Shown: positions 10,751-56,121 of the stretch, piece by piece
Position numbering within the stretch: position 1 is the stretch's first letter
Layout: the number at the start of each line of letters is the position of its first letter
Source of the DNA: Stegostoma tigrinum
Taxonomy: Eukaryota
Assembly (NCBI RefSeq): GCF_030684315.1
Contig: NC_081362.1
Coordinates: 3,220,228 to 3,284,227, forward strand
DNA: 64,000 nt
Direction: 5' to 3'
The notes under the pieces: generated by a model
Databases searched by the model: none
The model's input: only the letters and a program-made list of their open reading frames with translations
Told to the model about the DNA's origin: nothing
Position numbers and translations under genes: made by a program

Positions 10751-12599
10751 TCACTGCCTGCCTCTGATAAAGCTCCCATCACCCAGTTCACTCTTGAGAA
10801 CGGTCAAAATTAGCTCCAATTTGTATAAATTGGAATCCTGCATTCATGAGACTAGAATTTGAGATAGGAAAAAGTCAGTTCAAAGTGTGAAACAAATATA
10901 CTTTCAGTAGATTAAAACTTTGCTAACCGAACACTTTAAGTCACAGTTAAGTCCCAGAGAAAGCATGAGTCACCCAAACAACCCATAGCAACTAAGAACT
11001 TCCAGCAATTCTGATAAGGGGCCTCAATTTAATCTCTTACACTTTCAATGAGTGATTTTCCCTTTGCACATCTCTTTGGTTCCATGCAGACACTCATGTA
11101 CCAAACAGCACTGGCCGTGGTGAGATTTGAGTCCACAATTCTGTTTTAGTGGCTCAATGACCATTACCACTGTACAACCTTCTCTTGCCAGATTGTGAAA
11201 CATGAATGTACCAGATTGACTTCAAACCCCAGCTGCCTCATGAATGATCTTCAGAGAAGGAAATCTGCCGAACTTATCCAGCCTGGCCTATGTTTGACTC
11301 CAGACCTACAGAAATGTGGTGGACCCTAAAATGAGCTCTGAAATGACCCAAGCAAGTCACACGTGATTTACAACGGAACTGCAATAGCTCAAGAAAGTAT
11401 CTTCTTAAGGGTATTTAGGGATGGAATACAATTGCTGCCACTGATGCCTGCATTCCATGAATGAATGAAAAGGTCACAAACATGGACAGGTGTTGGATGA
11501 GGGAAGGGCCAGGCTAGAACCATGTTGACTTTTCCTGTGAATTCTCTCAATAATTGACAATCCCAACACTCCTCGATATAAAGGATCATTCACAAAGCCT
11601 AGCCAGCTGGGAGCTGTCAAAGTAACGACTGATAAGAGCGGACCCCAGTACGATACTGCAGGTCGGAAATTACATTGGGTCGCTAACACAAAGCGTTTGA
11701 TATTACGTCCACTGCCTGTTACAAGCCTCTGTTGTTGTTCTGCAGAGGGCAGTGAAATTGAATGTCAGGCTTGGTGTACACTGATGTTAAGTACAAACAC
11801 ATTGCATTCCCACCCAAGAGAAATCCCAGCTCTGCACATTAAGGCATGAAATGGTGCAAAAATGGAAGAAAAACTTAAGTATCAGTTCCAATACGGAATG
11901 AGCTGAGCAAGTAATTAACTCTATCTGTCACTTCCACCCTGTCTAAGCCACTATGGTCCTCAGACTGATTCATGGACCAATGAATGGGAGTAGGGATAGG
12001 GAGACAAAGATGCTTAATCAATGCCATATTAATGGAATGAGACTGTATCTTCTCCACTGGGATAATTGTCACCAGAAATGCTGAATATTGTAAAAGAGGG
12101 TATTCTGGTGACAGTAAAAGCGTAAAGTAGATTAATTAGAATTAAGATGGGACCAAAATGAAGAAACTTACATAAATTTTTTAAAAATTCTTAAAAGGAC
12201 AATGTAGCTCCAATCCATTAACCAGATAACATTCTTAACTTGATGGCACAGCTATATATTTTTTGTGGTTTAAATCAAACATTCCATTTTAAGGGACAAG
12301 GAGCTGTTCCAAATAAGTTAACAATGTGATGTTATAGCAAAGTCAAGCTTCAGAGTCATGGTCATTCATATGGAATGAGAAGTGGATGAATTTTGCCTCT
12401 TATGTCACTGACAGAAATGAGCTAACGAACAGGCAAGAGTGAGTCTCAGCTCCCACCTCCACAGACTTGTTCAGATTTTTGAGGTGAAGAAATGGTCAGG
12501 ATAGCAGAGCCCACAGTTATTAAAGGATAAATTGAGCAGTAATTCTGGTAATCACACTTGCTCAGTTCAGCACAGAAATCCAAATAATGCTGTGTGAGG

Positions 12600-12833
12600 C
12601 AACACAGTGTGGAGCTGGAGGAACGCAGCAGGCCAGAATATCAGAGAAACAGGAAAGTCACCATTTCAGGCCGGGGCCCTTCATCAGAACTGGCTTTGCA
12701 GTATGGATTTACAAGTTCTGATAAAGTGTTCTGATCAAAACATCAACTCTGACGCTGCCTGGCCTGCTGTGTTCCTCCAGCTCCACACTGTGTTGGCTCT
12801 GACTCCAGCATCTACAGTTCTTGCTGTCTCTGA
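12600..12833. mobile_element. Mini-PLE with two inverted ends
   Basis: caacacagtgtggagctggaggaac...gttcctccagctccacactgtgttg with the tail at right. Hammerhead remnants on both strands. Degenerate 14-bp TSD (12586-12599 / 12833-12846, 3 mismatches). Confidence 0.8.
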
Positions 12834-13333
12834 ATGATTTGCGAGGTGTACAGTATCACTGAATCCCACTTGGTGCAAAAAAGCAAGGAAGTTCTAAAGT
12901 TGTATCAGTTACTCAACTCACAGGCACCAGAAAAGGTTAAAGCTCATTTCTAACCTGTCAAGAACAAGTGGGGTTGAACAATCAGTATTGGTCCTACCAG
13001 CAGAGTTCACAACCCATATGTGACAGCAAGGGGTCACATGCTGACCTTCTGTCCACACATGATCAAGCCATCATGGCATAAGTTCTCTTTTTGTCAGGGT
13101 TAAGGATCTATTTCCAGGAGAATTCTGATCAAAGAAGATGTGAGGTTGGTTGATCACAAACCGACTTGAGGAGACTGTGACATCTCCTCAGTGTTGACAC
13201 TGTCCCGTCTGCTTCCTACGTCACAGTCCACAGTTCACACTCAGTGCTTAGGAGCGAGCGAATCCACAAGCAATGGAGCCAGGGATGAGAGAAACAGGGA
13301 GAACATGGATCAGGGAGACCCCCAGTCAGTGAC

Positions 13334-13830: not shown

Positions 13831-14718
13831 AGTTCACTGAGGGAGTGAGTGTGGGTGCGTGAGGGGGCAGATGTCAGAGGGTGGTTACTGGAAGGGTGGT
13901 TCAGGGAGGGATAGAGGTTGCTGCAAAGTGCCCCTACCTCAGGGAGCAGAAAGCAATATCCGACCCTTTGTGTGAAAAACATGCCTCGCACATCTCTTTT
14001 AAATTTCACCCCTCTCACCCTGAACCTGTGTCCCCTGCTAATTGGCCTCTCCTCCCTGGGAGAAAGCCTCATACCTCCCACTCTATCTATGCCATTCACA
14101 ATCTTACAAACTTCCATCAGGAAAGTAAGGAAGCCCCTCATCTCTGTGCGATCGCTGGTTAACAATGGGAGAAAATAGGAGTCCGGTGTTTTCACTTTTT
14201 AGTAAATATGTACAAGGCTGAGATAAAGAGATTTTTATTTAGGGGCATCAAGGATTATGGGAAAAGGATAGGGAAGTGGGAAGTGGGAAGTCGGCCATGA
14301 TCCTCACTGTATGGCAGAGTCAACACAATAGGCTGAATGGCCTAGTTCTGCTCCTAGGTTTTATGGTTTTCTCTGTTCAGTAATGGACTTCCACTGTAGG
14401 CTCTACAATAATTACCAGGACAAAGAAAAGTGCCGAATTAATGATGAGTGCCTGGAACACACTGCCAGAGGAGTTGGTGGAAGCAGTCACATTGGCAGCA
14501 CCTGGACAAATACATGAACAGGAAGGGTATAGAAGGATATGGATCCTGTAAGTGAAGACTGTTTTAGTGTGGAAGGGCAAAGCGGAGTCAGCACAGGCTT
14601 GGAGGGCCGAAGGGCCTGTTCCCGTGCTGTATTGCTCTTTGTTCTGTTGAGGATTTTAAAAGAAGTTATTTAGTCTGGGAGCCATAAGATTCCCTTGCTT
14701 TGAATGATTTCACAGTCA

Positions 14719-14933
14719 CAGGTTGTCCTCTGGTTACAAGCAGGTTCTGTTCCTGACCACGTTTGTAAGTTGATTTATCCACAAGTGGGAACACCGAGTG
14801 GTATGATATAAAATATCCATCGCTTTGTAGAAGAAAACACTCACATGTCTGATCCTTAAAGTTAACATTAAAATGGGATCTTGTTCATCGGCACATGTTT
14901 GTAAGTTGGACACTTACATTTCAGGGATCCCTG
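14719..14933. mobile_element. Old Tigger/TcMar-like MITE
   Basis: CAGG...CCTG termini, TA at right, internal repeated tttgtaagttg. Degenerate TIRs. Confidence 0.45.
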
Positions 14934-15400
14934 TAGATTGAACCACGTTTAAATGGATGGTCACTGTATTTTAAAAATGTTAAAGACTTGAACCTGAATT
15001 CTGTACGTTCTTGTAGATTTTGCTGTGAAGGAAGGAAAGAGATATAGCTTGCTGAAGTGCAAAATCCAAGAAGACTATTTTTTCAACAATCAAAAGATAA
15101 ACAGAAAACTCTGTAGTTAGATGGTGATTTTTGGTTCAGTACAGAACCTGCACAGCTCTTACAGGTAAATTATGTTATTAGGGTCAGCCAGGATTTTCAA
15201 ATGAAGCTCATGTTGTTAACTGATATTCTGTTAATTTAGAGCAAATCTAACATTCAGAAATAACGAATGGCTTTCTGCAATTGCAAAAACATGGCAAAGC
15301 ATTAGGAGGGCAATTTGGTATTGGGACTTTACTCCACATTGCTGTTATTGCAGCCCTCACAACTCTCTCATCAGAAAATCACCTTTATACTGTGCATTTC

Positions 15401-15860
15401 GGGGTCAGTTAGCTCAGCTTCCTGTAACTTTGGTCTACAGTGTAGAATAATGACAGGGTTCAATTCCCACATCAGCTGAGATTACCACAAAGGACTCTCC
15501 CTCTCAAACTCTACCTTGCCTGAGACCTGAGGCAAGGTGACACTCAGGCTCAACCACCACCAGGCTGAAATAGCTCCACAAAGCTGGTCTCCCATCAGCA
15601 AGTCACCCTTTATTTACATGTGCATAGTACATGACACTGACCCAGCTAGCTCAGAGCTGACTCTGACAGTGAACAGAACTGCTGGCACTCTTGTTTATAT
15701 CTGTCAGCCAGGGCTCCCTGATTGGACCAGCTTAACAGCCACAATCAGGGAACTCATATTTTGTAAGATTCACCTGGCTGACTTCATTATAATCATTACA
15801 CAGTTGTCTTTTTTCTCCTGAGAGAGCAGCCCTATGGTCTGGTAAGGATGATGTAATTTT
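15401..15860 (+). mobile_element. tRNA-headed SINE interrupted by a solo LTR
   Basis: ggggtcagttagctcag...gggttcaattcc. The same head recurs at 63952-64000. Confidence 0.65.
15566..15800 (-). mobile_element. Short solo LTR (235 bp)
   Basis: Minus strand TGT...TCA with CCAAT, TATA-like and AATAAA in order. Diverged 5-bp TSD caggc/cagtt. Homologue at 61914-62141. Confidence 0.7.
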
Positions 15861-17268
15861 AGTAGCTTTTGTGTGAAATCCAATCCCAATGAACAATGTA
15901 AAAGTGGCTCACTGCACCGGGTGATAGAGTAATGGAGAAGGATTTAGAGGGAGATATTTTTCTAATCAACCTCTTCAGAGATGTTCCTACCCACCACTGG
16001 AGATGTTGGGACTTGAGCCAGATAGAAAGGGAATTCCAGAGTTCAGGAACAAGGGAATTGTCAAAGGTACATTGAATCATTCTATTCTGGGTAAATATAA
16101 GAGGGAGGGGACTTGTGGTGCATTGGCTAACATCCCAACCCCTGCTTCAAAACGTCGAGGTACAAGTCCCACTCCAGGACTTGTTCATCATGGAAAATCA
16201 TACAGAACAGAGAAGGCCTTTGGGCCCATGAAATCTGTCCCAAAAAAGAGACTAAATGTACATGAGCCCTGCTTTCCAGCATTTCCTCCATAGCCTTCAA
16301 TGTTATGACTTTTGAAGTGCTCATCTGAATAGGTTTTAAAGATTGTGAGGTTTTTTGCCACAATTACACCCCCAGGGGTGGGGTGGGGGGAAGAGCTGTG
16401 TTTATAATGTGGCTAAACAATTTGACAGGCTTGTAAATTCTTCCAATTTTCCTAACACTAGGCATTAAGAACAGGAGAGTCTCCTGGTCAGTTGTCCTAC
16501 CAAAGGTCATGACAAACCACGCCCGAGCTTTTTCCAGAAGCATGGATTAATCCAAAAGAAGCCCGTCTCCCAGTCATTCAGAAACAAGAACAGGAGATAG
16601 CTGGGCAACAGCAACATGAGGTCGAAATTAAAGAAGCACTAATATCCCAGAGGGGCATAAGACTGCAGGAGCTTACAGAGATGAGGGACAAATTCCTGGA
16701 TAAATTTGAAAAGAAAAGTAAGAAGTGTAAAATTGTGCAGTTCGTTTGCCTAATATGCTCAGTGGAGTTCAATCTAGCTTCCTTTTTAATCAAAATCAAG
16801 TCATTTCATTTTTTTTCTTTAATTGCAGCTGCTCTTAATTTTTTTCCCCAAAAGTATGTGTTGGCTATCATATAACATTATGTAAATCCATGACAATGCA
16901 TTGTTCAGTTAAAATATTACTGCTTCTTCATTCTCATGAGGGCCTCTTGTTTTTGTTTCAATCGCTCTTTTAATTTCAGTGTATTATGTGTCATTATTTT
17001 AAATTTTCTAAACTTTTGTTTATATCTGGCAAGCCCCAACAAATAAATCTGTGCACAGAACAAAGGTTGGGGGTTAAATGGAACTTCCTTCAAAATAAAT
17101 GACAAAATGCTGAAAGTGACAAATTTAGAGGGGCCTATGGAGATAACACTGTAGAATGAGACTAGCTGGTGAGCTCTTTTAGAAGCTTGCATAGGCGTGA
17201 GGGGCTGAATGGACTCCTTCTGTAATGTAAAATTCTATGATTCTACTTCAGACATTCATCACATTGAA

Positions 17269-17905
17269 AAATGGTTGACACTTAAGAAATATTGCATCCT
17301 TGGCTATTGGTAATTTTTTAAAATGTCTGTTCACAGGATGTGGATGTACATGGCTGGCATGGCACTTATTGTCCATCAGCAATTGCCCAGGAGAATGTAG
17401 TGGAGAGCTGCCTTCTTAGAAGACTGCAGTTCTTGAGGAGTAGAGCACCCACAATGCCGATAGGGAAGGAGTTCTAGGATTTGATGCAAAGGAACAGAGA
17501 TAGAATTCCAGTACCCAGCCGGGCAAGTGGGGAGTATTCCATCACACTCCTGACATGTGCCTTATAGATGGTGGACAGGCTTTGGAGAGCCTGGAGGTGA
17601 GTTACTTGCTGCAGTATAGCTAACTTCTGGCCTGCTCTTATAGCCAGTTCAGTTTCTGTCAATGGTAGACCCCACAGTGGTGATTGCAATAATGAAGTTG
17701 CAAGTGTGAGTACAACAAATGTGTTTCCAACTTTGCTTAGCTAACAAAAGCAATGGAAACATTGCAGCAGTCACTGCATTTTCCTGGGCAATTGCTGATG
17801 GACAATAAGTGCCATGCCAGCCATGTACACCCACATCCTGTGAACAGACATTTTAAAAAATTACAAGTATTCAAGGATGCAATATTTCTTAAGTGTCAAC
17901 CATTT
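17269..17905. repeat. 134-bp inverted repeat (17269-17402 / 17772-17905), 369-bp spacer
   Basis: aaatggttgacacttaagaaatattgcatcc... and its near-exact reverse complement. Confidence 0.92.
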
Positions 17906-19039
17906 CTCCAAGGGAGAATCTTGGAAATAAAAGCATCTGCTTCCTCTGCATCTCATTGGGGACAGTGGCTTGTGGTTTGACCAAATAAACCACAAACTGA
18001 TCTTTACTCACTTCCCTCAGCTCCACTTGATCATTCAATAATGGATGTGCAAGGGTTAAAACCTGGTACCACTGTGCGTGTGCTAAGGAGAAAAATGCAG
18101 ATTGATGCATAATGAGTCAAACAGGAAAGCACAAGTTCTACGTAAGACTCAGAGGGGAAAGGATCAATCTCACTGTGATGCCTTTTGCAATTCTATGAAT
18201 GAATCCACCAGTTGATTTACCACTGATTGTCAACTTCAGTGAGAAGGTGCATACCATCTGTGGCACCAAGGATCTTGCACATGCCAGTGTGTTACACACT
18301 TAAACATTCGGCTGATCCCCTCCAAACCCAGTTCCCCGAAAATGAGCATTGGAATTCCCTCCGTAAACCTCTTTCATTTAAGTGTCTGCTTGACACCTAC
18401 CCCGTTTGATCAAACTTTTGCTGACTTGCCTTAAGAACTCGTTGTGTAGCTTGGTCCCAAATTGTGTTTGATAATTAATGGGACCATGCTAACATTCTGC
18501 TGTGCTAAAAGTGTTGTGTAAATGCACATCTTTGCTGCTGCTCTGAGATTTTTTTAAAAATGGAAAATTAAGCTAGAACCTCTAATTTAGAAGCAATGCA
18601 ATGGATATCACAGGGCTTTAGTGATGTGCTTGCCGAGGCTATTGGCAGTTGTCCAATCTGAAGTTATCACTGCATCAGGAAAGCATTCTTGTCAGGCTGG
18701 CAGAAGACTATTAAAAGAATATGCAGATATCTGATGGTTCTACCTGCCTTGCAGAATTGTCAGTGCATTCTTGGTTATAGTACGTACCTCTGCCATACTT
18801 GTCCACCTTTCGCACTATCAGATTCACTAAACTCCTTAAAGACAACTTGTAATTCAAAAATCTGCCACTTGCCTCTTACAGCAAAAGTCTTCAGCAACAA
18901 GAGTGAAGCAAGCTAAAATGAACAGCAAATCTTTGTATCAGAGATAATGGGAACTGCAGATGCTGGAGATTCCAAGGTAATAAAATGTGAGGCTGGATGA
19001 ACACAGCAGGCCAAGCAGCATCTCAGGAGCACAAAAGCT

Positions 19040-19067
19040 GACGTTTCGGGCCTAGACCCTTCATCAG
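19040..19067 (-). ncRNA. Minimal type I hammerhead ribozyme core (left PLE arm)
   Basis: Minus strand reads CUGAUGA-A-GGGUCUAGGCCC-GAAAC-GUC. Palindromic ACGU stands in for stem III. Confidence 0.75.
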
Positions 19068-19291
19068 AGAGGGGGATGGGGGGAGGGAACTGGAATAAAT
19101 AGGGAGAGAGGGGGAGGTGGACCGAAGATGGAGAGTAAAGAAGATAGGTGGAGAGAGTGTAGGTGGGGAGGTAGGGAGGGGATAGGTCAGTCCAGGGAAG
19201 ACGGACAGGTCAAGGAGGTGGGATGAGGTTAGTAGGTAGCTGGGGGTGCGGCTTGGGGTGGGAGGAAGGGATGGGTGAGAGGAAGAACCGG

Positions 19292-20378
19292 TTAGGGAGG
19301 CAGAGACAAGTTGGACTGGTTTTGGGATGCAGTGGGTGGGGGGGAAGAGCTGGGCTGGTTGTGTGGTGCAGTGGAGGGAGGGGATGAACTGGGCTGGTTT
19401 AGGGATGCTGTAGGGGAAGGGGAGATTTTGAAACTGGTGAAGTCCACATTGATACCATATGGCTGCAGGGTTCCCAGGCGGAATATGAGTTGCTGTTCCT
19501 GCAACCTTCGGGTGGCATCATTGTGGCAGTGCAGGAGGCCCATGATGGACATGTCATCAAGAGAATGGGAGGGGGAGTGGAAATGGTTTGCGACTGGGAA
19601 GTGCAGTTGTTTGTTGCGAACTGAGCGGAGGTGTTCTGCAAAGCGGTCCCCAAGCCTCCGCTTGGTTTCCCCAATGTAGAGGAAGCCGCACCGGGTACAG
19701 TGGATGCAGTATACCACATTGGCAGATGTGCAGGTGAACCTCTGCTTGATGTGGAATGTCATCTTGGGGCCTGGGATGAGGGTGAGGGAGGAGGTGTGGG
19801 GACAAGTGTAGCATTTCCTGCGGTTGCAGGGGAAGGTGCCGGGTGTGGTGGGGTTGGAGGGCAGTGTGGAGCGAACAAGGGAGTCACGGAGAGAGTGGTC
19901 TCTCTGGAAAGCAGACAGGGGAGGGGATGGAAAAATGTCTTGGGTGGTGGGGTCGGATTGTAAATGGCGGAAGTGTCGGAGGATAATGCGTTGTATCCGG
20001 AGGTTGGTAGGGTGGTGTGTGAGAACGAGGGGGATCCTCTTGGGGCGGTTGTGGCGGGGGCGGGGTGTGAGGGATGTGTCACGGGAAATGCGGGAGACGC
20101 GGTCAAGGGCGTTCTCGATCACCGTGGAGGGAAAGTTGCGATCCTTAAAGAACTTGGACATCTGGGATGTGCGGGAGTGGAATGTCTTATCGTGGGAGCA
20201 GATGCGGCGGAGGCGGAGGAATTGGGAATGGGGGATGGAATTTTTGCAGGAGGATGGGTGGGAGGAGGTGTATTCTAGGTAGCTGTGGGAGTCGGTGGGC
20301 TTGAAATGGACATCAGTTACAAGCTGGTTGCCTGAGATGGAGACTGAGAGGTCCAGGAAGGTGAGGGATGTGCTGGAG
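19292..20378 (-). pseudogene. Inverted 5'-truncated copy of the PLE ORF (RT thumb, linker, GIY-YIG)
   Basis: ORF 19292..20434(-) is nearly identical to 20986..21855(+). Confidence 0.9.
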
Positions 20379-21855
20379 CTCACCTTTGTCGCCCTACAAC
20401 CACACATCAACGAATACCAGTCACGGTCGGACATAGAGCAGTTTTTCCGCCGTCTTCGCCTCCATGCCTACTTCTTCAACCGGGAACCCAACCCTCCTTC
20501 CACTGACCCCTTCACCCGCTTCCAACAAAAATCCCACTTCCTACAGACTAAGGGGGTGGCCATGGGCACCCGCATGGGCCCCAGCTATGCCTGCCTCTTT
20601 GTAGGTTACGTGGAACAGTCCCTCTACCGACACAGGCCCCAAACCCCACCTCTTCCTCCGGTACATTGATGACTGTATCGGCGCCGCCTCTTGCTCCCCA
20701 GAGGAGCTCGAACAGTTCATCCACTTCACCAACACCTTCCACCCCAACCTTCAGTTCACCTGGGCCATCTCCAGCACATCCCTCACCTTCCTGGACCTCT
20801 CAGTCTCCATCTCAGGCAACCAGCTTGTAACTGATGACCATTTCAAGCCCACCGACTCCCACAGCTACCTCGAATACACCTCCTCCCACCCACCCTCCTG
20901 CAAAAATTCCATCCCCTATTCCCAATTCCTCTGCCTCCGCCGCATCTGCTCCCACGATAAGACATTCCACTCCCGCACATCCCAGATGTCCAAGTTCTTT
21001 AAGGGCCGCAATTTTCCCCCCACGGTGATCGAGAACGCCCTTGACCGCATCTCCCGCATTTCCCGCGACACATCCCTCACACCCCGCCCCCGCCACAACC
21101 GCCCCAAGAGGATCCCCCTCGTTCTCACACACCACCCTACCAACCTCCGGATACAACGCATTATCCTCCGACACATCCGCCATTTACAATCCGAGCCCAC
21201 CACCCAAGACATTTTTCCATCCCCTCCCCTGTCTGCTTTCCGGAGAGACCACTCTCTCCGTGACTCCCTTGTTCGCTCCACACTGCCCTCCAACCCCACC
21301 ACACCCGGCACCTTCCCCTGCAACCGCAGGAAATGCTACACTTGTCCCCACACCTCCTCCCTCACCCCCATCCCAGGCCCCAAGATGACATTCCACATCA
21401 AGCAGAGGTTCACCTGCACATCTACCAATGTGGTATACTGCATCCACTGTACCCGGTGCGGCTTCCTCTACATTGGGGAAACCAAGCGGAGGCTTGGGGA
21501 CCGCTTTGCAGAACACCTCCGCTCAGTTCGCAACAAACAACTGCACCTCCCAGTCGCAAACCATTTCCACTCCCCCTCCCATTCTCTTGATGACATGTCC
21601 ATCATGGGCCTCCTGCACTGCCACAATGATGCCACCCGAAGGTTGCAGGAACAGCAACTCATATTCTGCCTGGGAACCCTGCAGCCATATGGTATCAATG
21701 TGGACTTCACCAGTTTCAAAATCTCCCCTTCCCCTACAGCATCCCTAAACCAGCCCAGTTCATCCCCTCCCCCCACTGCACCACACAACCAGCCCAGCTC
21801 TTCCCCCCCCACCCACTGCATCCCAAACCAGTCCAACCTGTCTCTGCCTCCCTAA
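20379..21855 (+). pseudogene. PLE RT + GIY-YIG endonuclease ORF, internally deleted and frameshifted
   Basis: QTKGVAMGTRMGPSYA, then a frameshift near 20630, then an open frame 20632-21855 with RYIDD (YIDD at 20662-20673), a Cys linker PCNRRKCYTC and VVYCIHCTRCGFLYIGETKR...RFAEH...VANH. Confidence 0.9.
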
Positions 21856-22079
21856 CCGGTTCTTCCTCTCACCCATCCCTTCCTCCCACCCCAAGCCGCA
21901 CCCCCAGCTACCTACTAACCTCATCCCACCTCCTTGACCTGTCCATCTTCCCTGGACTGACCTATCCCCTCCCTACCTCCCCACCTACACTCTCTCCACC
22001 TATCTTCTTTACTCTCCATCTTCGATCCGCCTCCCCCTCTCTCCCTATTTATTCCAGTTCCCTCCCCCCATCCCCCTCT

Positions 22080-22107
22080 CTGATGAAGGGTCTCGGCCTG
22101 AAACGTC
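22080..22107 (+). ncRNA. Minimal type I hammerhead ribozyme core (right PLE arm)
   Basis: CUGAUGA-A-GGGUCUCGGCCU-GAAAC-GUC. Confidence 0.7.
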
Positions 22108-22652
22108 AGCTTTTGTGCTCCTGAGATGCTGCTTGGCCTGCTGTGTTCATCCAGCCTCACATTTTATTATCAGCAAATCTTTGTAGCTGGTCTTAGGAAG
22201 GTGAAATTTTACATTCCTTTTATTCAAATGATTTCCCCTATTGTGGATGAAGGAATGAATGGAATCATTATTTTCCTCCACATCAATTCTTTTTGACAAA
22301 TTCAGTTACCTTGAAGAATGCCTCACAACTATTAAAGTGAGGTTATATCCTTTGGGAAGTTAGTACTTAATCAGTTAAATAGGGGTATTAAAGTCCCATT
22401 TACACAGCAGCGACTAATTCAGTTTTTGTATCGAGTTTGCAGCTGTTCCTCATTAAAATGCACTGTGTAAATGCCATAAGTTTGTTTACTCTTGCTGCAT
22501 TAAAAGGGACACCTCATGCTACCAGTTTTAAAGCAGCTGCAAATCACAGTGATCTAAATCAGACTCAGAAAGAAACTAATGCATATTCCCTCACTAGTTC
22601 CCAGCCTCACGGGCGCAGCAGACTGTGCACTAGGCAGTAACCCTATATGGTT

Positions 22653-22783
22653 TCAGAGATTGTAGGAACTGCAGATGCTGGAGAATTCTGAAGAAGGGTC
22701 TAGGCCCGAAACATCAGCTTTCCTGCTCCTCTGATGCTGCTTGGCCTGCTGAGTTCATCCAGCTCTACACCTTGTTACCTCTT
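22653..22783. mobile_element. Mini-PLE (inverted tail + hammerhead end)
   Basis: Homologous to the ends of the 18938-22170 element. 13-bp TSD accctatat(g/t)gtt at 22640-22652 / 22784-22796. Confidence 0.85.
22688..22715 (+). ncRNA. Hammerhead core in a mini-PLE
   Basis: CUGAAGA-A-GGGUCUAGGCCC-GAAAC-AUC, with a G>A change consistent with CpG decay at the cleavage triplet. Confidence 0.6.
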
Positions 22784-23084
22784 ACCCTATATTGTTGTTG
22801 GTTGTGTTCTCGTTAAGAGTATATCTGTGAATAGGACAAACAACAGCTCCCAGCTGGACTGAAACATTTGAAACTAATTTTGTTGATGTGCGGAAACAGT
22901 AATTTTACCAAGAAGAATGAATTTGAAAGAAGTGTGCATCAGCTTGCAGGGTTTAGTTCAGGTAAGCAAGGACTGGGTTTAGGAGCTCCTGGTGCTAACT
23001 CTCGTCAGCGATTTAAATATACCCAGCCTTGTTTCTAAATTGAGGACTGAGTGTCATAAATATGGTTACTGGGTCACTTGAACT

Positions 23085-23569: not shown

Positions 23570-23855
23570 GCTGCTCTGTTAATCCAGAGACATAGGCAAT
23601 ATTCTGGGGTCCTGTGTTCGAATCCCCCAATGGCAGGCAGTAAAATTTGAATTTTCAAACAAGATCTGAGATTAAGAGTTCAATGATGACCATGAACCCA
23701 TTTCCAATTGTCAGGAAAACCCAACTGGTTCACTAATATCCTTTATTGAAGGAAACTGCCATCCTTACCTGGTCTGTGACTCCACACCCACCGCAATGTG
23801 GTTGATGCATAACTGTCCCCTGGGCAATTAGTGATGGGCAATAAATGCTGTCTGG
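23570..23855 (+). mobile_element. tRNA-derived SINE with LINE-shared tail
   Basis: Box B gttcgaatccc and ctggttcactaat...gaaggaaactgccatccttacc. Confidence 0.7.
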
Positions 23856-25035: not shown

Positions 25036-25398
25036 TCATAGAATCCCTACAGCATGAAGACAGGCCGAAGGGTCCACATCGACTCTCGAAGCATCCCACC
25101 CAGACCCATCACCCTATAATGTACATGATCTCAGGATGCTGCTTGGCCTGCTGTGTTCATCCAGCTTCACACTTTATTATCTTGCACTCTCCAGCATCTG
25201 CAGCTCCCATTAACCCTATAGTGTACACGTTCCTGAACACTATGGGACAATTTCCCATGGCCAATCCAACCCAATCTGCACATGTTCGGACTGTGGGAGG
25301 AAACCGGAGCACCCGGAGGAAACCCACGCAGACGCGGGGAGAATGTGCAAACTCCACACAGACAGTCGCCCGAGGCTGGAATTGAACCCGGTCCCTGT
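25036..25398 (-). mobile_element. HE1-like V-SINE, 5'-truncated, interrupted by a PLE fragment
   Basis: Reverse-complement similarity to 5710-6014. Confidence 0.85.
25126..25212 (+). mobile_element. PLE end fragment nested in a HE1 SINE
   Basis: gatgctgcttggcctgctgtgttcatccagc...cagctcccatta. 15-bp TSD accctata(a/g)tgtaca at 25111-25125 / 25213-25227. Confidence 0.85.
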
Positions 25399-25466: not shown

Positions 25467-25633
25467 GAAAACCACAAAAGCTGGAGATCACAGCGAGTCA
25501 CGCAGCATCCGTGGAGAGAGAGCAAGCTAATGTTTCGAGTCTCGATATGTTAGCTCGCTCTCTCTTCACGGATACTGTTATGATTTCCAGCATGTTTTGT
25601 TTTCAGTACAGATTCCAGCATTGCAGTAATTTG
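25467..25633. mobile_element. Mini-PLE, second subfamily, near-palindromic
   Basis: agcatccgtggagagagagcaagctaa...ttagctcgctctctcttcacggatact. Exact 13-bp TSD ctccccttagcct at 25454-25466 / 25634-25646. Nested in a CR1 fragment. Confidence 0.8.
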
Positions 25634-25981: not shown

Positions 25982-26108
25982 GATAGCTGGAACTGCCGAT
26001 GCTGGAGTCTGAGATAACAAGGTGTGAAGCTGGATGAACACAGCAGGCCAAGCAGCATCAAAGGAGCAGGAAGGCTGACGTTTCGGGTCCAGACCCTTCT
26101 TCAGAAAT
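25982..26108 (-). mobile_element. PLE end (hammerhead + tail)
   Basis: Homologous to 18938-19067. Flanked by the direct repeat ccaaggc. Confidence 0.8.
26077..26104 (-). ncRNA. Hammerhead core in a PLE end fragment
   Basis: Minus strand reads CUGAAGA-A-GGGUCUGGACCC-GAAAC-GUC. Confidence 0.7.
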
Positions 26109-29100
26109 ACCAAGGCAGGCAAGCGGCAAATAAGGACCATGGTATCCTGAAGTTCATACACACACGGAGGTAGGCTGAAGACGTCAGTGAAGGAGGGTTC
26201 AGTGCGAGGAAGGGGAGTGAACTTGGGGTCAGGTGTACCGTGGAACCCCCTTCTCCCCGGCCCCAGCTCCCTTCTCCCTCACAACAGCCTGCCCCACATT
26301 TCTTCCAGACGACCCTTCACCCCCACCGCGACGGTAAAATAGCGATTGGAGGTGAGGGGTCGGATGAGGCACTTAAGCGACCGTTAATTGGCCGCCTCTG
26401 ATCCAAAGGCGGGGCGTGGGGGATTGGAGGACCTTGGGACCTCCATCACGCACCCATCAAATTATTGAGACAGATTGAGAGAGGGTGGGACAGCAGTGGA
26501 CAGACTACACACTGCATTCTCTTGCCCTACACCAACCCGCGCCCCAACCTTCAAACCCACTGACAGAGGGGCTTGCAACACCCATCCATATCTGGTAGTG
26601 TCCCTAACTCTGAGCCTGAAGATCTAGTATCAAATCCCAACTACCCCGGAGCTGTGCTCTGAACAGGTTAAAAAAAACCCTTCGCGGTTTTCTCTTCTCT
26701 ATGTGCATAATATTGATTACAAACATTGTACTTGAAACAATGCTAAACACAAGGTAAGGTTGTAGTTAATAATCTTTAAAACAAAAGTCAATATTTACTC
26801 TGAAGTCTTTAGGAACCCAGAAACAGGTTGAAATGTTGAATCACTTGATCTGGATTCGCGTTCTGTGAATTATCCCTTAAAAGCTTTGTTTCATAAAAAT
26901 CAATCAATGTCAAGTTTAAAGTTAACCATCAGCCACAAGTATGAGCCGTGCATTGCAAACATTCGACTTCAGCATCAGTGTGTGGAGCTGGTTCCTAGTT
27001 ACGCTCCTGGAAAGCCTGTTTCAGATGGCAGTAAATTTTCAGCTACTTGTGTGCTCACCTGTCACAGATTCACTTATTCACACAGCATTGCCTGTACACC
27101 TTTCACTGACTGTGCGCGTACAGTTCGCTTACCTGCGGACTTAAAGGAAAAATGAAGAATGGAACTTACTTTCCGGAGTAAACGTGTGCTCTGCACTGCG
27201 CGTGTACTGCCGGTGGCCTACATGCCATGTCCACCGTTTGGGAAAATCATTGATCGCAACGTTCTTCAGGAACGCACCCCTTAGCAATGGCTCGACTTCA
27301 CCATTTGTCCCTTCGCCCTAGACCTCCCCCAGCGAGCGGAAATACTTCCCGTCTGTCTTGAAAACTTTGACCAACTCCTTTCATTCCTGGAGGAATACAA
27401 GCCTAGTTCATGGAATCTCTCCTTGTAGTTTAATTGAGGTCCAGGTATCAGCCTGGTATATGTACTCCCTCGGAGATCAACACCTCCTTCCCAACAAGTA
27501 GAGCACAGAACTGCAAATGCAGAACTCCACGTTTTCAGCGAAATGATGGCTGTTATCATTTATGTGAATTCATAGTTACTGACAGTAAATACAGATCACT
27601 CTTCATGTAGCATTCAGTCAATAAAATGTTATCATTGCAATCCAAGTTACAGGCAATGCTCTTCCATTCATTGTAGTGGCCAGTAACGTATTTAATTCAG
27701 TGCAACAATCATTACAATTTGGAAATTGCCTCAGTGGTTGTAAAATGCTTTGGGATATCCTGGGATAGTGAAAGAGGCTATATAAATGCACATTTTTTTC
27801 TCAATATCATTGTAATATGATGCTACATTAATTTGTCCTTTGGGCTTTCATAGCTGCATCTGGCAATGTATATTGCTGCTATAATTATTTTTCTCAAAAA
27901 GAGGGAAGGGATTTATCCATTTATACGTAAGTAGTAATTAACAGCAGCAATTTAATAGCTTAAATTCAAAACATTAATCTGTATCCAGATTCACTTAACA
28001 TTGATGAAATTCTTGTGCTTTGTTCTTGTATTTCGGTAACTTTGGATCTTGCCTTTTAACATATTACTTTGCTTTGTCAATGTGGAGGTTGTTTTCACAG
28101 GAAAATAAGGAAAATTCATTGAAGTCAAACAGTTGTTCCTTTTCTTCAAAATACAGACCATATAATTGAAGAGTGTAGACGTTAAGTAAATACTGTTTAC
28201 TGTTCTTACCAGCAGCTTTCACCTACAATCAAGATAAGTAGCAAATAAATGTTTTGGGAAAGAAAGCATGATTTTTCACTACACCAATGGCTCCCACAGA
28301 AAGTGACAATTAATCAGGAGAATGAAAATGCCTTTTTGCTTTCAATGGTGGGAAGCCTCTCCACTCTTTTATGGATTCTGTGAGGTGGATGAATAAAAGA
28401 TAGAAATAAAGAAGATAGGAACAGGAGCAGGCCATTCAATCCCTCAAACTCTGCCATTCACCATGATCATAGCTGATGATTGATCTCCTTCCCTATCCCT
28501 TGATCCCTTTAACTACAAGAGTTATATCTATCTTCTTCATGAAAACACATAATGTTTAATCTTCAATCACTTGCAATGGTATTGAATTCCATAGCCTCAC
28601 CACTTTCTGGGTGAAGGAAGTTCTCACCTCAGATCTGAAAGGTTATTATCCTTAAACTATGATCACAGATTCTGCACGACCCCGCCATCAGGAACATCCT
28701 TCCTACATCAAACCTGCTGGAGTCCTAGGTTGGATACTGCCCAGTGGAATCAAATGTCATTGTTGTACAGCAATAATTTGACAATCACTGCTGCATTCGG
28801 TTTCCTTGTTCATTTTCAGGCTTAAGCCAGCAAAAGTAAAACAGAATTCTTGACCAATCTGGTTGCCCTATGAAGATACTGATAGTACATTTCCCGGAAC
28901 TGATGACTCTCTGAGCTGATAGTATTCCCTGATGGCATGAAATGTTTTGAGCACTCATATCTGCTTCTCACCTTCACCTCCCTAAATCATTGACTGTACA
29001 GAATTTAACCCTCTTTGACTTTCCATCTGTTTCTCCTTCTTTAATCATCTTCTTAAAACTAACTTTGTAATAAAGTTTTCTTGTAACTTGTTCCAATGTT

Positions 29101-30059: not shown

Positions 30060-30420
30060 TTCTTCATTCTTTCAAGAGATGTGAACATCGCTAGCAACTC
30101 CAGCATTTGTTGCCCATTCCTAATTATCCTTGCACTGAATGGCTTTCTCTGCAGTTCAGAGGGCCGTTATCAGTCAATCACATTGCTGTAGGTGTGGAGT
30201 CACATGTAGGCCAGGCCAGGTAAGAATGGTAGATTACTTTTCCCTAAAGAGTAATAGTGAACCAGATGGGCTTTTACTATGATTGATGATAGTTTAACGG
30301 TCACATGACTGATTCTAACTTTCAATTCCATATTTATTAACTGAATGAATTTTCATTCCAACAGTTGCCCTGGTGGGATTGAAATGAGGACAGTGACATT
30401 ACCACAATGCATTAACTCCC
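30060..30420 (-). mobile_element. tRNA-derived SINE with LINE-shared tail
   Basis: Reverse similarity to 23570-23855. Confidence 0.65.
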
Positions 30421-40528: not shown

Positions 40529-40540
40529 ATGGCGCAAAGG
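40529..40540 (+). CDS. MEIS1: MEIS1-like homeobox gene, coding exon 1 (MAQR)
   Basis: gaggccgATGGCGCAAAGG|gtgagt. A 12-nt first coding exon followed by a canonical donor is characteristic of MEIS genes. Confidence 0.93.
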
Positions 40541-40811
40541 GTGAGTACTTTTTGAACTGGTCTGTCTTCTGGTACGAGTGCTAAACGCGACGCTTTTGTA
40601 GACAGCGCGGTACTTTCAGGTGCCTGTGAAAACTTTTTTCTTAAATTTTGTGTTTGTGCGGTTATATTTTCTCTCGCCTGTGTTCTGTCAGGAACTTTGT
40701 CGAATTGCAAATGTGCGCTTTGTGCCTGTAACTTTGTTGACGCACGGATTTCTTCCCCGTTTGCTTCATGGTGCTCTCTCTGTCTCTCTCTTTTTTGTGT
40801 GTGTTGGGCAG

Positions 40812-41038
40812 TATGACGAAATCTCACATTACGGGGGTATGGACGGAGTCGGAATGCCGACAACAATGTACGGTGACCCTCACGCCCCCAGGTCTCTCCA
40901 ACCTGTACACCATCTAAACCACGGGCCATCGTTACACAGCCACCAATATCCGCACACTAACCACGCTAATACCATGCCCCCGAACATGGGCTCCTCGGTA
41001 AACGATGCATTGAAGAGAGATAAGGACTCGATTTACGG
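40812..41038 (+). CDS. MEIS1: MEIS1-like coding exon 2 ([14 protein letters not shown]...[11 protein letters not shown])
   Basis: ag|TATGAC...TACGG|gtatgt, 227 bp. The translation (within ORF 40620..41102) matches the MEIS1 N-terminus: [23 protein letters not shown]. Confidence 0.95.
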
Positions 41039-41598
41039 GTATGTTTTGACCATGAGTTGCTCAACGATATTCTGTGATCTGCGGCAGGGACGGTACACGT
41101 GACACGTTAGTTTTTTCATTGAAATTCTCAAACAAAATGACAAACACACGGAAACAGTAAAGCACCAAAGTTTCGCCTCGGCTTGTGATTGAAATTGACA
41201 TTCTGTGGAAGCGGTCTTGGAGCGAGTTACATTTCATTCGCTATTGTAAATAACATGAGAACTCGGGAGCGCACGCATGATGTTGCCGGATGTTTTTTAA
41301 TAAATATTATTTTCTAAAAAAAAAGAAAAATTGCCGTCCAAAATGGCTGCTTAAAAGGTTATTTCAGGGCCATTTCGCTCTTAAATTCTGGCTTGCTCGG
41401 TCGGGAGAGAGGATTGTTGAGATTTCATGTCGTTAGAAGCGACCGCGATGTTTTACCAGTGAGTACAGTACGTTTACGACCAGTAATTTATGTAGAGCCC
41501 GCAGTCAACAAGTAGATTTTAAAGAAGTTCAAACTGTAGCGGCTGTATCAATCAAAAGAGAATCTCCCTTTCGTTTGTGTGTGTGTGTGTGTTTTTGA

Positions 41599-41808
<210 letters not shown>

Positions 41809-42300
41809 TAATTTTGAAAGTTGCAATAGTTTCAGTGACCGGACTCGGGTTTTCCTTGGTCTGCAGCAGAGTTTAGCACAAATTAACACAGAGCGCTTGT
41901 TGTGCCGATAAACCGAATTGAAAATGTTAATAGCAGCAAAATTGAAATGGTATCAAAATGTTTTTCAACGAATTGGGGTAATTGTATAAAGCGATCACAA
42001 TCGGAGCATTTTATTTATGGATCACGTTGGTGCTACCAGTGAAAACGCAGTCAGTTTAATTGTGGATTTTTTTAATTTTTAACTTGTTTGAAAGAAGTTG
42101 TCATTGCCTTATAAAGTGTTCCTTTTGAAATTAAGTAATGTGCTATCTGTTGGGCTAATACTGAGGAGAGAGTTTCCTTGTCGCTAATGTGTGATGTTAA
42201 AGCAGATTTTTGGAAGTTTGCGAATCAAGTTGGATGTATCGACTGTGAAGAGCGGGAGCGGGGGGAGAAGTGACCATTTGTATTTCTCTTTTCACTCTAG

Positions 42301-42351
42301 GTCCGAGCAGAAAAACCTCTATTTTCCTCCAATCCTGAGCTGGATAATTTG
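42301..42351 (+). CDS. MEIS1: MEIS1-like coding exon 4 (VRAEKPLFSSNPELDNL)
   Basis: Polypyrimidine tract, ctctag|GTCCGA...AATTTG|gtaagc, 51 bp. Confidence 0.95.
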
Positions 42352-43416
42352 GTAAGCCTGACCGCCTGTTCAGTAGAGGGAAGGCGCTGTAGAGAAACTC
42401 GTAAAAGCGTTTCCACTGAACCAAAGCAAATATATATTTATTGTGGCAAATTGTCAGGACTTCTTGGGAGATGGGTCGGCATCTACTGTCAGTTTAGCGT
42501 AGCCGCATATTTGGGGGAAAGCAATGAGAGAGAGAGAAAGGAGAGAAAAAAAAAACGATCGTTACAATCCGTTGCAAATCTGCGTTTTTTTTTGATTTTC
42601 TGATAGCAGTGACTGTCAGGAGCGATAACCATCACAATTCAGTTCCTGTATGGCTGTCACTCCAGTGAAGACGATGCGTGATTCTTATATTATATATTTC
42701 ATTTAATTTTCGCTTTTTGGCCTGGGCAGTGAAATTTTGGGTCGTGGCGGCGGTGCGTTAAGGTTCGGAGTTCTGTTCTGTGTCCCAAGTTGCCTGGGGT
42801 GAACGGAGAGGGACGAGGGAAGGAAGATACAAGGGTTGGTGGGTGTGTGTGGGGAGGGGAGTGCGGGTTCTGGTGGCTGGGAGTAATCCGGCCCTAATGA
42901 ATTTAAGGAGGCGCTCTAATTTTTAAAAAAATGCTAGGTCTTTTTGACTCCCTTCCCCTCGCCACCCCCTCCTCCACAACTGATTTCTTTCTACTTCTCT
43001 TTTAATATAAACGGTTGGAAAGAAGTTTACAGCATTTCTAGGCGGTCTCAAAGAAAGGGAAGTGTTTGCGTGCATTTGTCGGCCGAGTTCCATGCCTGTG
43101 CGGTTCACGTAGACTTGGCCTTGCTCTCAGTAGGCTGGAGAGAGCTGGGGGTGGGGGAGTGGGGCACGAGGAACGGTATGGGGGGGGGGAGGTTGGCGTG
43201 GGTTTAGGAGCAAACAGGAACGATTTTTGCCTATTTTTGCAGTCCCCCCAACTTCCAGCGCGCCTCCCACCTCTCTCCCAGACACACACCCGTACACATG
43301 TAAGAAATGCTAAAGATGCTGCCTTCGGGACTATTTGTAAAAAATGGGGAGCAGGCCCCCTCCCCCAGGCCCGTGCGTTTCCGGCTGCTAAGAGATGTTT
43401 ACCTGTTTCCTTTCAG

Positions 43417-43467
43417 ATGATTCAAGCCATACAAGTGTTAAGATTTCACCTTTTGGAGTTAGAGAAG
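43417..43467 (+). CDS. MEIS1: MEIS1-like coding exon 5 (MIQAIQVLRFHLLELEK; MEINOX HM2)
   Basis: tttcag|ATGATT...GAGAAG|gtaact, 51 bp. Confidence 0.96.
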
Positions 43468-44416
43468 GTAACTACCTCCTGTTCTGGTCCGTGGATGGTA
43501 TTAGACGTTCGTACTCGGTGCGACCAGGATTTGCAATTACTGTCAAAGCCAATCCTGCCTCACATTTCTCTTGCTCTTTCATTACAATTCATTCCACTAA
43601 AACCCCTGACCACAAACGCCCCGCCGTTTTGTTCATTTTAATCTCGCTGTGGGATTTAATTTTGATCAGCTCCATTTTTAAAACAAAAACATAAATCCTC
43701 TTTCTCGCCCCCCCGCACCCTTCCCCCCATCGAGCCCACACGTTATAAATGATCTAAAATGTCAACAATCTGCCGAATCTGACTCTTTAGACGGGAAATC
43801 ATAATATTTTGTCCTGGTAGTCTGCGAGGAATATTTTAATCAAATCTAAAAGACAAGTCGAGCTAGTATTTCTGAGGGGGGGGGGGTGGTGGTGGGGTGT
43901 GAAAGGAAGTGTGAGCATTTTAGTTTACCATGCCTGGAATCTCCCAAGACATATTTACTTGTTGAAGATCTGAGCAGTGTTTATCTGTGTCTCACTCGAA
44001 TCCTACATATCCCCCTTTTTTCTCGGAATTGTTCAGAGTTTGTAATGAAATAACGAGACGAAATTAAACTGTTTACCTTAAATGTCATTCATGCGGGTCG
44101 GACATCTAATGGGCACAGCCCCGGGAGCAGGCAAATTTAACACGGGTGTTGAATGCGTTGTAGCTGTGAATCATCTTGTCACTGTCAATTTTGTACCGAT
44201 ATCTCTATTTTGTTGGTTATTCCAAATTCTTGATGCGTGTGTCTCTGGGGGGGGACATTCACAAGTGCTTCCAACTATTGGGAACCTCGCGTCACGCAGA
44301 CCTGAGCTGGACTTGTCGCTTCTGCTTGAGTGTTATAATTTATTTTTTGCTTTTGAAAAAAATGTATTTTTTAGCGTATTGTACTTCATTATTTTCTCAT
44401 CGTCGTCCAACTGTAG

Positions 44417-44569
44417 GTGCACGAATTATGTGACAATTTTTGCCACCGGTACATCAGCTGCTTGAAAGGAAAAATGCCCATTGACCTAGTTATTGATGAG
44501 AGAGAAGGCGGTTCCAAATCGGACAACGAGGAGATCACCAGGTCGTCGTCGGTTAATATCACAGATCAG
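44417..44569 (+). CDS. MEIS1: MEIS1-like coding exon 6 ([51 protein letters not shown])
   Basis: ctgtag|GTGCAC...GATCAG|gtacgg, 153 bp. No exon 7-like sequence (RDHDD...PGPSSGG) seen downstream in the window. Confidence 0.95.
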
Positions 44570-44745
44570 GTACGGACAGAGTTCAGCAGTGCTTGGGGGA
44601 GCACGGAATACCTACTGTAGCTGTGTGCCTGCTGGTTATTCGCATATTGTCAAGAGCGCTTTGAATCTCAGTCAGAAAGAATATGACATTATGTATTGTT
44701 GCTTACAGAATGTATGGTAGTTTTTCTGTCGTGTGTATGTTCGTA

Positions 44746-47564: not shown

Positions 47565-48010
47565 TCCCATTGCTACACTATTGGCACCATCACATGACTC
47601 TCACCATGCCCATTCTGACACTGACCGTCGCCGTCACATGACTCTACTGGCACTGTCACATGACTCTTACCATGCCCATTGTTACACTGACTGGCACTGT
47701 CACATGATCCTCACCGTTCCCATTGTTACACTATTGGCACCATCACATGACTCTCACCATGCCCATTCTGACACTGACCGTCGCCGTCACATGACTCTAC
47801 TGGCACTGTCACATGACTCTCACCATGCCCATTGTTACACTGACTGGCACTGTCACATGATCCTCACCGTTCCCATTGTTACACTATTGGCACCATCACA
47901 TGACTCTCACCATGCCCATTCTGACACTGACCGTCGCCGTCACATGACTCTACTGGCACTGTCACATGACCCCCACCATGCCCATTGTTACACCACCTGG
48001 CACTGTCATG
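47565..48010. repeat. 153-bp higher-order tandem repeat (~2.9 copies) built from ~22-bp monomers
   Basis: TCACATGA spacing 44/22/44/43 recurs. CTGTCA recurs at exact 153-bp intervals. Confidence 0.93.
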
Positions 48011-55865: not shown

Positions 55866-56121
55866 TTGGAAAAAGAAAACAAATAACTGCAGTTTCTGGA
55901 AATTTGAAATGAAATGAAAGGTGCTGGAGAAACTCAACGGGTTTGGCAGCATCTGTGGAGGGAGAAAAGCAGAGTTAACATCCCAAGTCCAGTGACCCCT
56001 TTGTCAGAAAGGATTCTGATGAGTTCTGATAAAAGGCCACTGGACTTGAAACATTAATTCCGTCTTTCTCTCTGTGATGCAGCCGGACCTGCTGAGTTTC
56101 TCCAGCACTTTCTGTGCTTGG
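55866..56121. mobile_element. Mini-PLE, second subfamily, two inverted ends with decayed hammerheads
   Basis: gtgctggagaaactca...tgagtttctccagcac, containing gagttCTGATAAaaggccactggacttGAAACATTaattc. 12-bp TSD ggc(t/c)aaaatact at 55854-55865 / 56122-56133. Confidence 0.8.

Follow-up and report, generated by a model that had tools for sequence, protein, structure and literature searches.

An old head-to-head copy of a Penelope-like element within a single target site duplication in a carpet shark genome

The insertion analysed here lies in a 64-kb stretch of Stegostoma tigrinum DNA (64,000 nt, the window; positions are counted from its first letter). The start of a MEIS-family gene lies at about 40529, leaving 18,344 bp between it and the element, in agreement with the position some 18 kb upstream of a MEIS gene that the initial annotation had claimed; the agreement holds at the level of the family. 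Its exon 2 suggests that this gene is MEIS1 rather than a paralogue; comparison with the protein atlas yielded no name for the MEIS exon. The element is bounded by a 15-bp target site duplication (TSD), CAGCAAATCTTTGTA, identical at 18923-18937 and 22171-22185 (both + strand), its only two occurrences on either strand of the 64 kb. Between them the order is: a 39-nt tail (18938-18976, - strand), an inverted copy of the 3' part of the element (18977-20378, - strand), and a direct copy (+ strand) that reaches further 5' and has a tail-less end. The direct copy consists of a 390-bp spacer (20379-20768) and a right arm (20769-22170). There is no second TSD at the centre. The arms (18978-20378 and 20769-22169) aligned over 1402 columns and were 98.07% complementary. 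They differ by two 1-nt gaps and by 25 substitutions, 20 of them transitions and 5 transversions; the outermost pair 18977/22170 is one more mismatch, for a total of 27-28 places. The near-perfect 1.4-kb inverted repeat, 390-bp spacer and exact TSD reported by the initial annotation were thus borne out by the alignment and the exact-match search, and the arm differences that it quoted (KDRNFPST/KGRNFPPT and SDP/SEP) are correct in the translations.

According to the arm alignment, the translations, the comparison with homologues and a motif scan, the left arm is a 5'-truncated copy encoding the end or thumb of a reverse transcriptase (RT), a CX4CX2C linker and a GIY-YIG endonuclease, followed by a C-rich 3' UTR and a minimal hammerhead-like motif; the right arm carries the same segment. 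Pfam matches to GIY-YIG were obtained in both arms (E 1e-3, below the gathering score), together with a weak RVT_1 match in the spacer, and the RT contains a YIDD motif. The sequence VVYCIHCTRCGFLYIG, followed by the histidines in RFAEH and ANHF, has the features that define EN+ Penelope-like elements (PLEs) in PMC8557442, and the linker CNRRKCYTC fits the CX2-5CxxC Zn-finger that the same source gives as a trait of Neptune/Nematis, absent in Penelope/Poseidon. Identity to the best 30 of 63 full-length homologues of the RT plus GIY-YIG type was 45-54%. Judged from its coding sequence, then, the element is an EN+ PLE, as had been proposed, with an ORF in which RT precedes a C-terminal GIY-YIG domain; it would be Neptune-type (Neptune or Nematis), a placement made by the linker motif, the tree being one without named references. 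We rejected the long terminal inverted repeats of a DNA transposon or MITE as a reading, because the arms are asymmetric and consist of RT/endonuclease coding sequence.

The ORF is broken in the copy at 18923-22185. Over the whole 361-aa query, it is 94% identical to P0064 (labelled Stegostoma tigrinum) and 86% identical to P0065 (Rhincodon typus), which represent the same ORF and are annotated as uncharacterised proteins only. Both are without the 5-bp deletion seen in the element, and P0065 has normal RT sequence where the element has its large deletion. The family is abundant and 3'-biased in terms of summed contig depth, which is not a copy number, and tandem and tail-to-tail self-joints are frequent in its contigs; no locus was found in the metagenome, prokaryote and viral collections. 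Nor did an RNA sample turn up with the neighbouring stretch 14000-18930, a result that bears no weight on expression. The element is an old, dead copy of a high-copy carpet shark PLE family.

The spacer (57% GC), not recognised as such in the initial annotation, forms the 5' portion of the copy on the right: it belongs to the same ORF, has the orientation of the right arm, is 5'-truncated and carries two deletions (~0.78 kb and 5 bp), which may go back to a template jump, to the donor copy or to later events. Its first portion (20379-20534, +) encodes an N-terminal piece of the ORF, at about aa 185-235 of the full-length homologue P0003 (tblastn E 5e-4 to 2e-6 against P0003, P0005 and P0008). 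The joint of a ~260-codon deletion, by which most of the RT core is gone, follows at 20532-20535 (+); its size, ~0.78 kb, is estimated on a 52%-identical homologue. Family contigs from a related species (organism B) have a different sequence ahead of 20532. The remainder (20535-20768, +) contains the RT motifs GVAMG... and YIDD and, from the homologue comparison, the 5-bp frameshifting deletion at about 20626-20629; loose ends of the family occur at 20625-20629 in the family contigs listed. The inversion junction (20378/20379) is centred on a 6-bp palindrome, GAGCTC (20376-20381), which ~2.8% of random break pairs would give. No microhomology was found at the inversion point, where the left-arm side was examined.

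The 39-nt tail is part of the element and occurs on the left but not on the right; it did not figure in the initial annotation. Comparison of family copies, and the clustering of family ends at 18933-18943 and 18973-18980 in the family contigs listed, suggest that its outer end corresponds to a downstream RT start site (site 2) and that the tail-less end of the right arm corresponds to an upstream one (site 1). A candidate minimal hammerhead-like motif (CUGAUGA, stem II, GAAA) lies at 19034-19067 (-) in the left arm and, with two changes in stem II, at 22080-22113 (+) in the right arm; at the sequence level, the motif scan recovered core and stem II in five copies. Such a motif is a feature of EN+ PLEs (PMC8557442). 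The Rfam search gave no hammerhead match, and folding of the 3' end was no better than that of shuffled sequences. At 25.5 kb the same search returned two weak matches to miRNA precursors, well short of the gathering score. A partial-tandem direct pLTR, a family trait that 5'-truncated copies lose, is missing from this truncated copy; tandem joints, e.g. 19062 to 18939, are present in family contigs.

The main element has neighbours of similar build. Only 450 bp away lies a smaller and older member of the family (22640-22792), a miniature insertion built in the same way, with a 9-bp TSD. It combines an inverted piece consisting of tail only (22650-22684, equivalent to 18972-18935 of the reference) with a direct hammerhead-to-site-1 piece (22687-22780, equivalent to 19068-18975); the two pieces do not overlap, and an 8-bp palindrome is found at their junction. 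In all, three of the five 3'-end-bearing family insertions found in the window are head-to-head. In each of these three pairs one arm has the tail and the other does not, and the tail-less ends lie within a few bases of each other; in two pairs the 5' reach of the tail-less arm equals or exceeds that of the tailed arm, and in the third the two are about level. An inverted, 5'-truncated copy with a tail at one end and a TSD is also the layout published for PLEs and described as typical of them (PMC3846280, PMC8557442), so that the rarity implied by the initial annotation is wrong.

Comparison with individual systems brings out both likenesses and differences. In Pen2a_Av/Pen2_Av of Adineta vaga, as described in PMC3846280, an adjacent inverted copy likewise completes the insert, one TSD (9-10 bp there) surrounds the whole, the tail (31 bp there) is on one inverted repeat, and internal deletions and junction palindromes occur. 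The inverted part of those insertions is a pLTR of ~200 bp adjoining a full ORF that has direct pLTRs, whereas in the shark element it is 1.4 kb of coding sequence and UTR, without a direct upstream pLTR. EN+ PLEs in general and the Neptune and Nematis clades, in the account of PMC8557442, share with the shark element the inverted 5'-truncated copy at the 5' end, the 30-40-bp tail at one end only, the order RT then GIY-YIG with CCHH, the CX2-5CxxC linker and, as a candidate in the shark element, the hammerhead motif; no structural difference emerges from that account.

In the related species (runs X6 and X8), a contig of 1720 nt matches 18003-18937, the match ending with the last base of the TSD. 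The contig continues for 498 letters beyond the match, a length close to that between 22186 and a point just within the next repeat at 22650-22683. Organism B thus fits an empty site at this locus and a single event; because one exact TSD also encloses the whole structure, the single integration claimed at the outset is supported.

The differences between the arms look like neutral decay after insertion, to judge from their pattern. Of 18 coding differences, 14 are non-synonymous and 4 synonymous (neutral expectation 0.69-0.76; P<=0.004 under omega 0.1-0.3). Among the 19 that could be polarised (6 of 25 could not), the derived changes number 9 in the left arm and 10 in the right. CpG positions were hit at 8 of ~92 sites, the others at 18 of ~1309. 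The differences are evenly spread (KS p=0.22), without a long conversion tract; gene conversion between the arms was rejected, the longest identical run (126 nt) being shorter than the random median (187). An editing signature was likewise rejected, as the differences in spectrum are not significant (non-CpG sense C>T, 5 left versus 0 right, p=0.06; transversions, 0 of 9 versus 3 of 10, p=0.21). The arms probably were identical or nearly so at the start and have since drifted by 1.8%, which puts the age of the insertion at roughly one quarter to one third of that of the split from organism B. The initial annotation had the arm divergence either date the insertion or reveal two template RNAs: it does serve as a rough clock, and its neutral spectrum gives no pointer to two different templates. 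In the tree, the arms and the nearest homologue branch as a star without resolution, which leaves a single RNA and a pair of RNAs from one subfamily indistinguishable.

The structure is probably the product of one integration of a Neptune-type PLE, in which both target nicks primed RT at two start sites 39 nt apart, the cDNAs were joined head-to-head and the arms have since decayed. The GIY-YIG endonuclease would nick the two strands 15 nt apart; one 3' end would prime RT at site 1, 39 nt inside, yielding the right copy, and the other at site 2, the end of the tail, yielding the left arm. Both cDNAs would end early and be joined head-to-head, host repair filling in the rest. They may both derive from one RNA, with strand displacement, or from a pair of RNAs of one active source. 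The tail is on the shorter arm, whereas the spacer runs on from the arm without a tail; neither strand can therefore be a simple fold-back copy of the other, and the geometry of the insert still requires two cDNAs. A precedent exists in the Poseidon PLE PAc of Anolis carolinensis, with an AT-rich target as here: in vitro, both strands are nicked and extended and two RT start sites delimit the tail (PMC11167929). PAc differs in belonging to another clade, Poseidon, without the linker Zn finger; its two strands showed no difference in start site, and PMC11167929 gives no model for inversions and does not treat inverted insertions.

Priming from both sides of a target site is also known from L1, where the twin-priming pieces do not overlap. 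Both sides of a staggered break prime RT there, leaving an inverted 5' piece within one TSD, as here (Ostertag and Kazazian 2001, as described in PMC2246262). In the shark element, unlike L1, there is no poly(A) priming, priming would begin at two fixed sites separated by 39 nt, and the pieces have 1.4 kb of sequence in common; absence of overlap is seen only in the miniature, and the element was not placed among L1-type twin-priming inversions.

The 1.4-kb overlap would be easiest to obtain with two RNAs, and one may ask whether the two primers copied two already diverged, possibly dead, donors, much of the 1.8% then being older than the insertion and the age overestimated. The great abundance of the family and the predicted dimer of the PLE protein (PMC11167929) agree with this, as do the slightly, not significantly, different mutation spectra of the arms, a weak hint of separate histories. 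We regard it as unlikely, given the even split of changes between the arms, the CpG excess, the many changes at residues invariant among homologues (e.g. D>E, F>I) and the sharing by both arms of Y353 and D146, found in none of 23 aligned homologues; two active donors are excluded because synonymous changes are not in excess. Self-priming has been proposed for head-to-head PLE repeats (PMC3846280): one antisense strand would fold back and be copied to form a hairpin, one tail then being lost by endonuclease trimming, or the centre being lost later. The palindromes at the two junctions speak for it, as do two deletions within the 390-bp centre against only two 1-nt indels in the arms, and a later central deletion could have removed the fold-back signature. 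Yet the spacer runs on from the arm that lacks the tail, a fold-back of that strand would have no template for the tail, the two pieces of the miniature have no sequence in common, and chance alone gives a 3-nt match at the junction 2.8% of the time; we hold this origin to be quite improbable.

About as little, or slightly less, credit is due to a formation in two steps, be it a second copy inserted at the 5' end of the first, neighbours fused by deletion, or a ready-made inverted unit copied from elsewhere. The family does join to itself in its contigs, and PLE endonuclease cleaves its own element in vitro (PMC11167929), but everything here is within one exact TSD, with none at the centre, the arms are of equal age and the organism B match ends at the TSD. 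Finally, a chimeric or fold-back read is very improbable as the cause. None of the contigs listed bridges the inversion point or the spacer deletion joints, and inverted PLE structures are difficult to assemble (PMC8557442). Such an artefact would not produce a one-sided tail, an exact TSD or 27-28 differences with a natural mutation spectrum; moreover, the left junction is present on a contig in two samples (reaching only 19 letters into the element, for a bridging threshold of 31) and the empty site is consistent.

Returning to a single integration primed at both nicks, we tentatively suggest that leader/trailer twin priming at two fixed sites on one RNA makes the head-to-head insertions of this family. 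The RT starting at site 1 would lead; that starting at the tail end would trail, stalling at site 1 (the miniature at 22640) or displacing the leader cDNA (the main locus, with its 1.4-kb overlap). The tail is then expected on one arm and not on the other, and the arm without it should extend 5' to the same point as the tailed one or beyond it; the head-to-head pairs that can speak to this number three. No such model was found in the literature searched, older subscription papers lying outside its reach, and the formation of PLE inverted structures is still called undefined in PMC8557442.

As for the DNA itself, extrusion of a cruciform from the duplex, as had been envisaged, is unlikely because the spacer is 390 bp long with 57% GC; inverted repeat-induced recombination was reported to fall 300-fold when a spacer was lengthened from 12 to 100 bp (PMC10164571). 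A hairpin of the arms is possible in single-stranded DNA or RNA. The copy is apparently fixed and no host function is indicated. The locus itself is ordinary: a dead copy of an abundant element in a layout already described. Its modest value is that of a mechanistic test case: taken together, the main unit and the miniature favour priming from both nicks, at the two RT start sites already known, and speak against simple fold-back. The two arms can further serve as an internal clock in the manner of the paired LTRs of an LTR element, a resource absent from other non-LTR insertions; used genome-wide, it could date PLE activity in sharks. If priming by a leader and a trailer on one RNA holds true, the very many copies of this family would make the formation of PLE inverted repeats directly countable.

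The Penelope-like element (PLE) unit at 18923-22185 consists of two head-to-head copies inside a single 15-bp target site duplication (TSD), CAGCAAATCTTTGTA, whose only two occurrences in the window, both strands considered, are 18923-18937 and 22171-22185. The left, inverted arm (18977-20378) and the right, direct arm (20769-22170) flank a 390-bp spacer (20379-20768), as the initial annotation had proposed; when realigned (18978-20378 against 20769-22169), they were 98.07% identical over 1402 columns (25 substitutions and two 1-nt gaps), and this similarity and the exact TSD far exceed chance. The unit is asymmetric: the 39 bases between left TSD and left arm (the tail, 18938-18976) have no right-hand counterpart. 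From left to right come the TSD, the tail with the inverted 3' copy (1.44 kb), the direct copy (1.79 kb), which extends further 5' and has a tail-less end, and the TSD. The spacer has the right arm's orientation and encodes ORF residues ~185-235, then jumps to about residue 494 (numbering of the protein homologue P0003), ~0.78 kb being absent at the jump relative to P0003; there is also a 5-bp frameshifting deletion near 20626. Sequencing contigs of the family carry different letters at both deletion points, so these deletions are not the family norm.

The coding sequence of each arm covers the end of the reverse transcriptase (RT), then a CX4CX2C linker, then a GIY-YIG domain that bears the PLE CCHH motif. 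There were 63 matches to full-length homologues (730-1100 aa), and the nearest partial homologues, at 94% and 86%, carry the labels Stegostoma tigrinum and Rhincodon typus, respectively, which makes a carpet shark the most probable host. Under the definitions in PMC8557442, the linker points to Neptune or Nematis, not Poseidon; the element is a putative Neptune-type PLE (Neptune or Nematis), assigned by linker definition. A motif scan found a hammerhead-like core at both 3' ends of the unit, and these cores gave no score with Rfam. PMC6155905 reports minimal hammerheads from PLEs.

Contigs from 4 of the 19 listed runs were compared with 18000-20768 (left flank to spacer end). Samples S1 and S2 of organism A each gave one 1081-nt contig over 18000-18956, with no differences, that passes the TSD unbranched and ends 19 nt inside the tail, a reach below the 31-letter bridging rule; S1 or S2 may be the assembly's own source. 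This suggests that neither sample has an empty allele. From organism B, a related species (two samples, runs X6 and X8), comes a contig of 1720 nt that aligns to 18003-18937 at 51-52 differences; the match ends at the last TSD base and 498 letters follow. Counted from 22186, 498 bases end at 22683, just within the next repeat, where a contig would break; the contig fits an empty site with a single 15-mer, its downstream side being fitted by length. A point against is that, among the matches listed for 18000-20768, no contig bridged the inversion point (20378/20379). The single integration event initially proposed is supported by the one TSD and by the organism B match, which stops there as at an empty site. 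The insertion is real, single, old and dead.

The arm differences had been taken either to date the insertion or to reveal two template RNAs. The arms have 945 coding bases in common, and of the 18 differences within these, 14 are non-synonymous; the share expected without selection is 0.69-0.76, and for two active donors (omega 0.1-0.3) P<=0.004. Relative to the homologues P0064 and P0065, the right arm has 8 derived amino-acid changes and the left arm 6, and a by-eye comparison of the 3' UTR with the P0064 read-through adds 2 and 3, respectively, i.e. 10 and 9 of 19 polarised differences (6 of the 25 are unpolarised). CpG sites changed ~6 times as often as others (8 of ~92, counted by eye, versus 18 of ~1309), the differences are distributed evenly along the arms, and in a tree both arms and P0064 form a star without resolution. 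Two residues common to both arms occur in none of 23 aligned homologues. Given the neutral coding ratio, even split, CpG excess, even spread and shared residues, the differences are best read as post-insertion decay. The divergence retains its value as a rough relative date, and the 14/18 non-synonymous changes and CpG excess speak against templates from two already diverged donor copies. The non-CpG sense C>T changes (left 5, right 0; p=0.06) are a weak hint against pure post-insertion decay. Flank divergence between organisms A and B is 5.5%, and the ratio of arm to flank divergence is 0.34 (95% CI 0.20-0.56) for all changes and ~0.25 without CpG, in line with the insertion's absence from organism B.

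The neighbouring MEIS gene is indeed present, as a homeobox gene of the MEIS family with Pfam Meis_PKNOX_N in two exons and an ATG near 40529; its first exons span 40529-44570 (+ strand), with a GC-rich upstream region at 39-41 kb. Were the unit transcribed from end to end, its RNA would pair into a duplex of very high stability. The proposed cruciform is unlikely to arise from duplex DNA with a 390-bp spacer, judging from PMC10164571, according to which repeats set far apart still pair in single-stranded DNA. Within a MEIS gene intron, a tandemly repeated unit at 47386-48153, probably a minisatellite, yields a 255-aa His/Thr/Asp-rich open frame. Elsewhere, a different repeat forms an inverted pair (17237-17402 / 17772-17936, 89% over 166 nt) in which no TSD of at least 7 bp was found; related pieces lie at 23716-23848 and 30157-30274. 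The strong local hairpin at 25498-25580 gave weak miRNA-precursor matches, far under gathering score and probably due to chance. By eye, the G-skewed then C-skewed kilobases at 1-1900 look like two opposed LINE-type fragments.

Five 3'-end-bearing insertions of the family were found in the window, three head-to-head and two plain tailed. The former are the unit itself and miniatures at 22640-22792 and 12594-12835, with the tail confined to one arm in each. In the first miniature (9-bp TSD) the inverted piece is tail only and the direct piece ends at site 1, the putative RT start 39 nt inside; the second, an older insertion, shows no clear TSD, has an unassigned middle of 21 nt and carries its tail on the right-hand arm. 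The plain short copies are at 25119-25212 (8-bp TSD, 25111/25213; ~16 unassigned bases at the 5' end) and 25982-26109 (7-bp TSD, 25975/26110). In organism A, five of the best-supported joints listed (9-53 contigs each per run) link tail end to site-1 end on opposite strands (reference 18934-18943 / 18973-18980); these are tail-to-tail junctions elsewhere in the genome, possibly with intervening letters, and self-insertion into the element's end or target-site reuse would account for them. Many family copies have their start at ~19068, immediately before the hammerhead core (541 loose ends in each run, among the matches listed), and so have four short pieces within the window. With tandem units of 123-124 nt (reference 19062-19068), they form a short retrozyme-like class of the family. 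PLE-derived short tandem elements appear in a 2026 preprint (10.64898/2026.07.22.740005). A head-to-head pair at ~55870-56120 (71% alike, with a hammerhead-like core) looks like an older related family.

An inverted 5'-truncated copy, a one-ended tail and a single TSD, all shared by the present unit, are typical PLE traits according to PMC3846280, PMC8557442 and PMC8969392; its arms are longer than those of the published examples compared, a difference of degree. Simple fold-back self-priming, as proposed in PMC3846280, is at odds with the structure: it is the shorter arm that bears the tail, the spacer is continuous with the tail-less arm, and the two pieces of the miniature at 22640-22792 have no sequence in common. 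Fold-back followed by trimming or later loss of the centre is an unlikely alternative.

The start of the left arm coincides with the tail end, whereas that of the right copy lies 39 nt further in. PMC11167929 reports that, in vitro, a Poseidon PLE makes nicks in both strands of its target and extends them; its RT has two start sites, which bound the tail. The unit most likely formed by twin priming, a mode known for L1 (as summarised in PMC2246262): both target nicks would have primed RT, one at each of two start sites. Either one RNA or two may have served as template, and leader/trailer twin priming on a single RNA is a tentative reading, somewhat more doubtful than probable. In a literature search that took in few subscription papers, and not the 2005/2006 PLE reviews, neither the shark PLE family nor a two-primer origin of PLE inversions was the subject of any paper listed.
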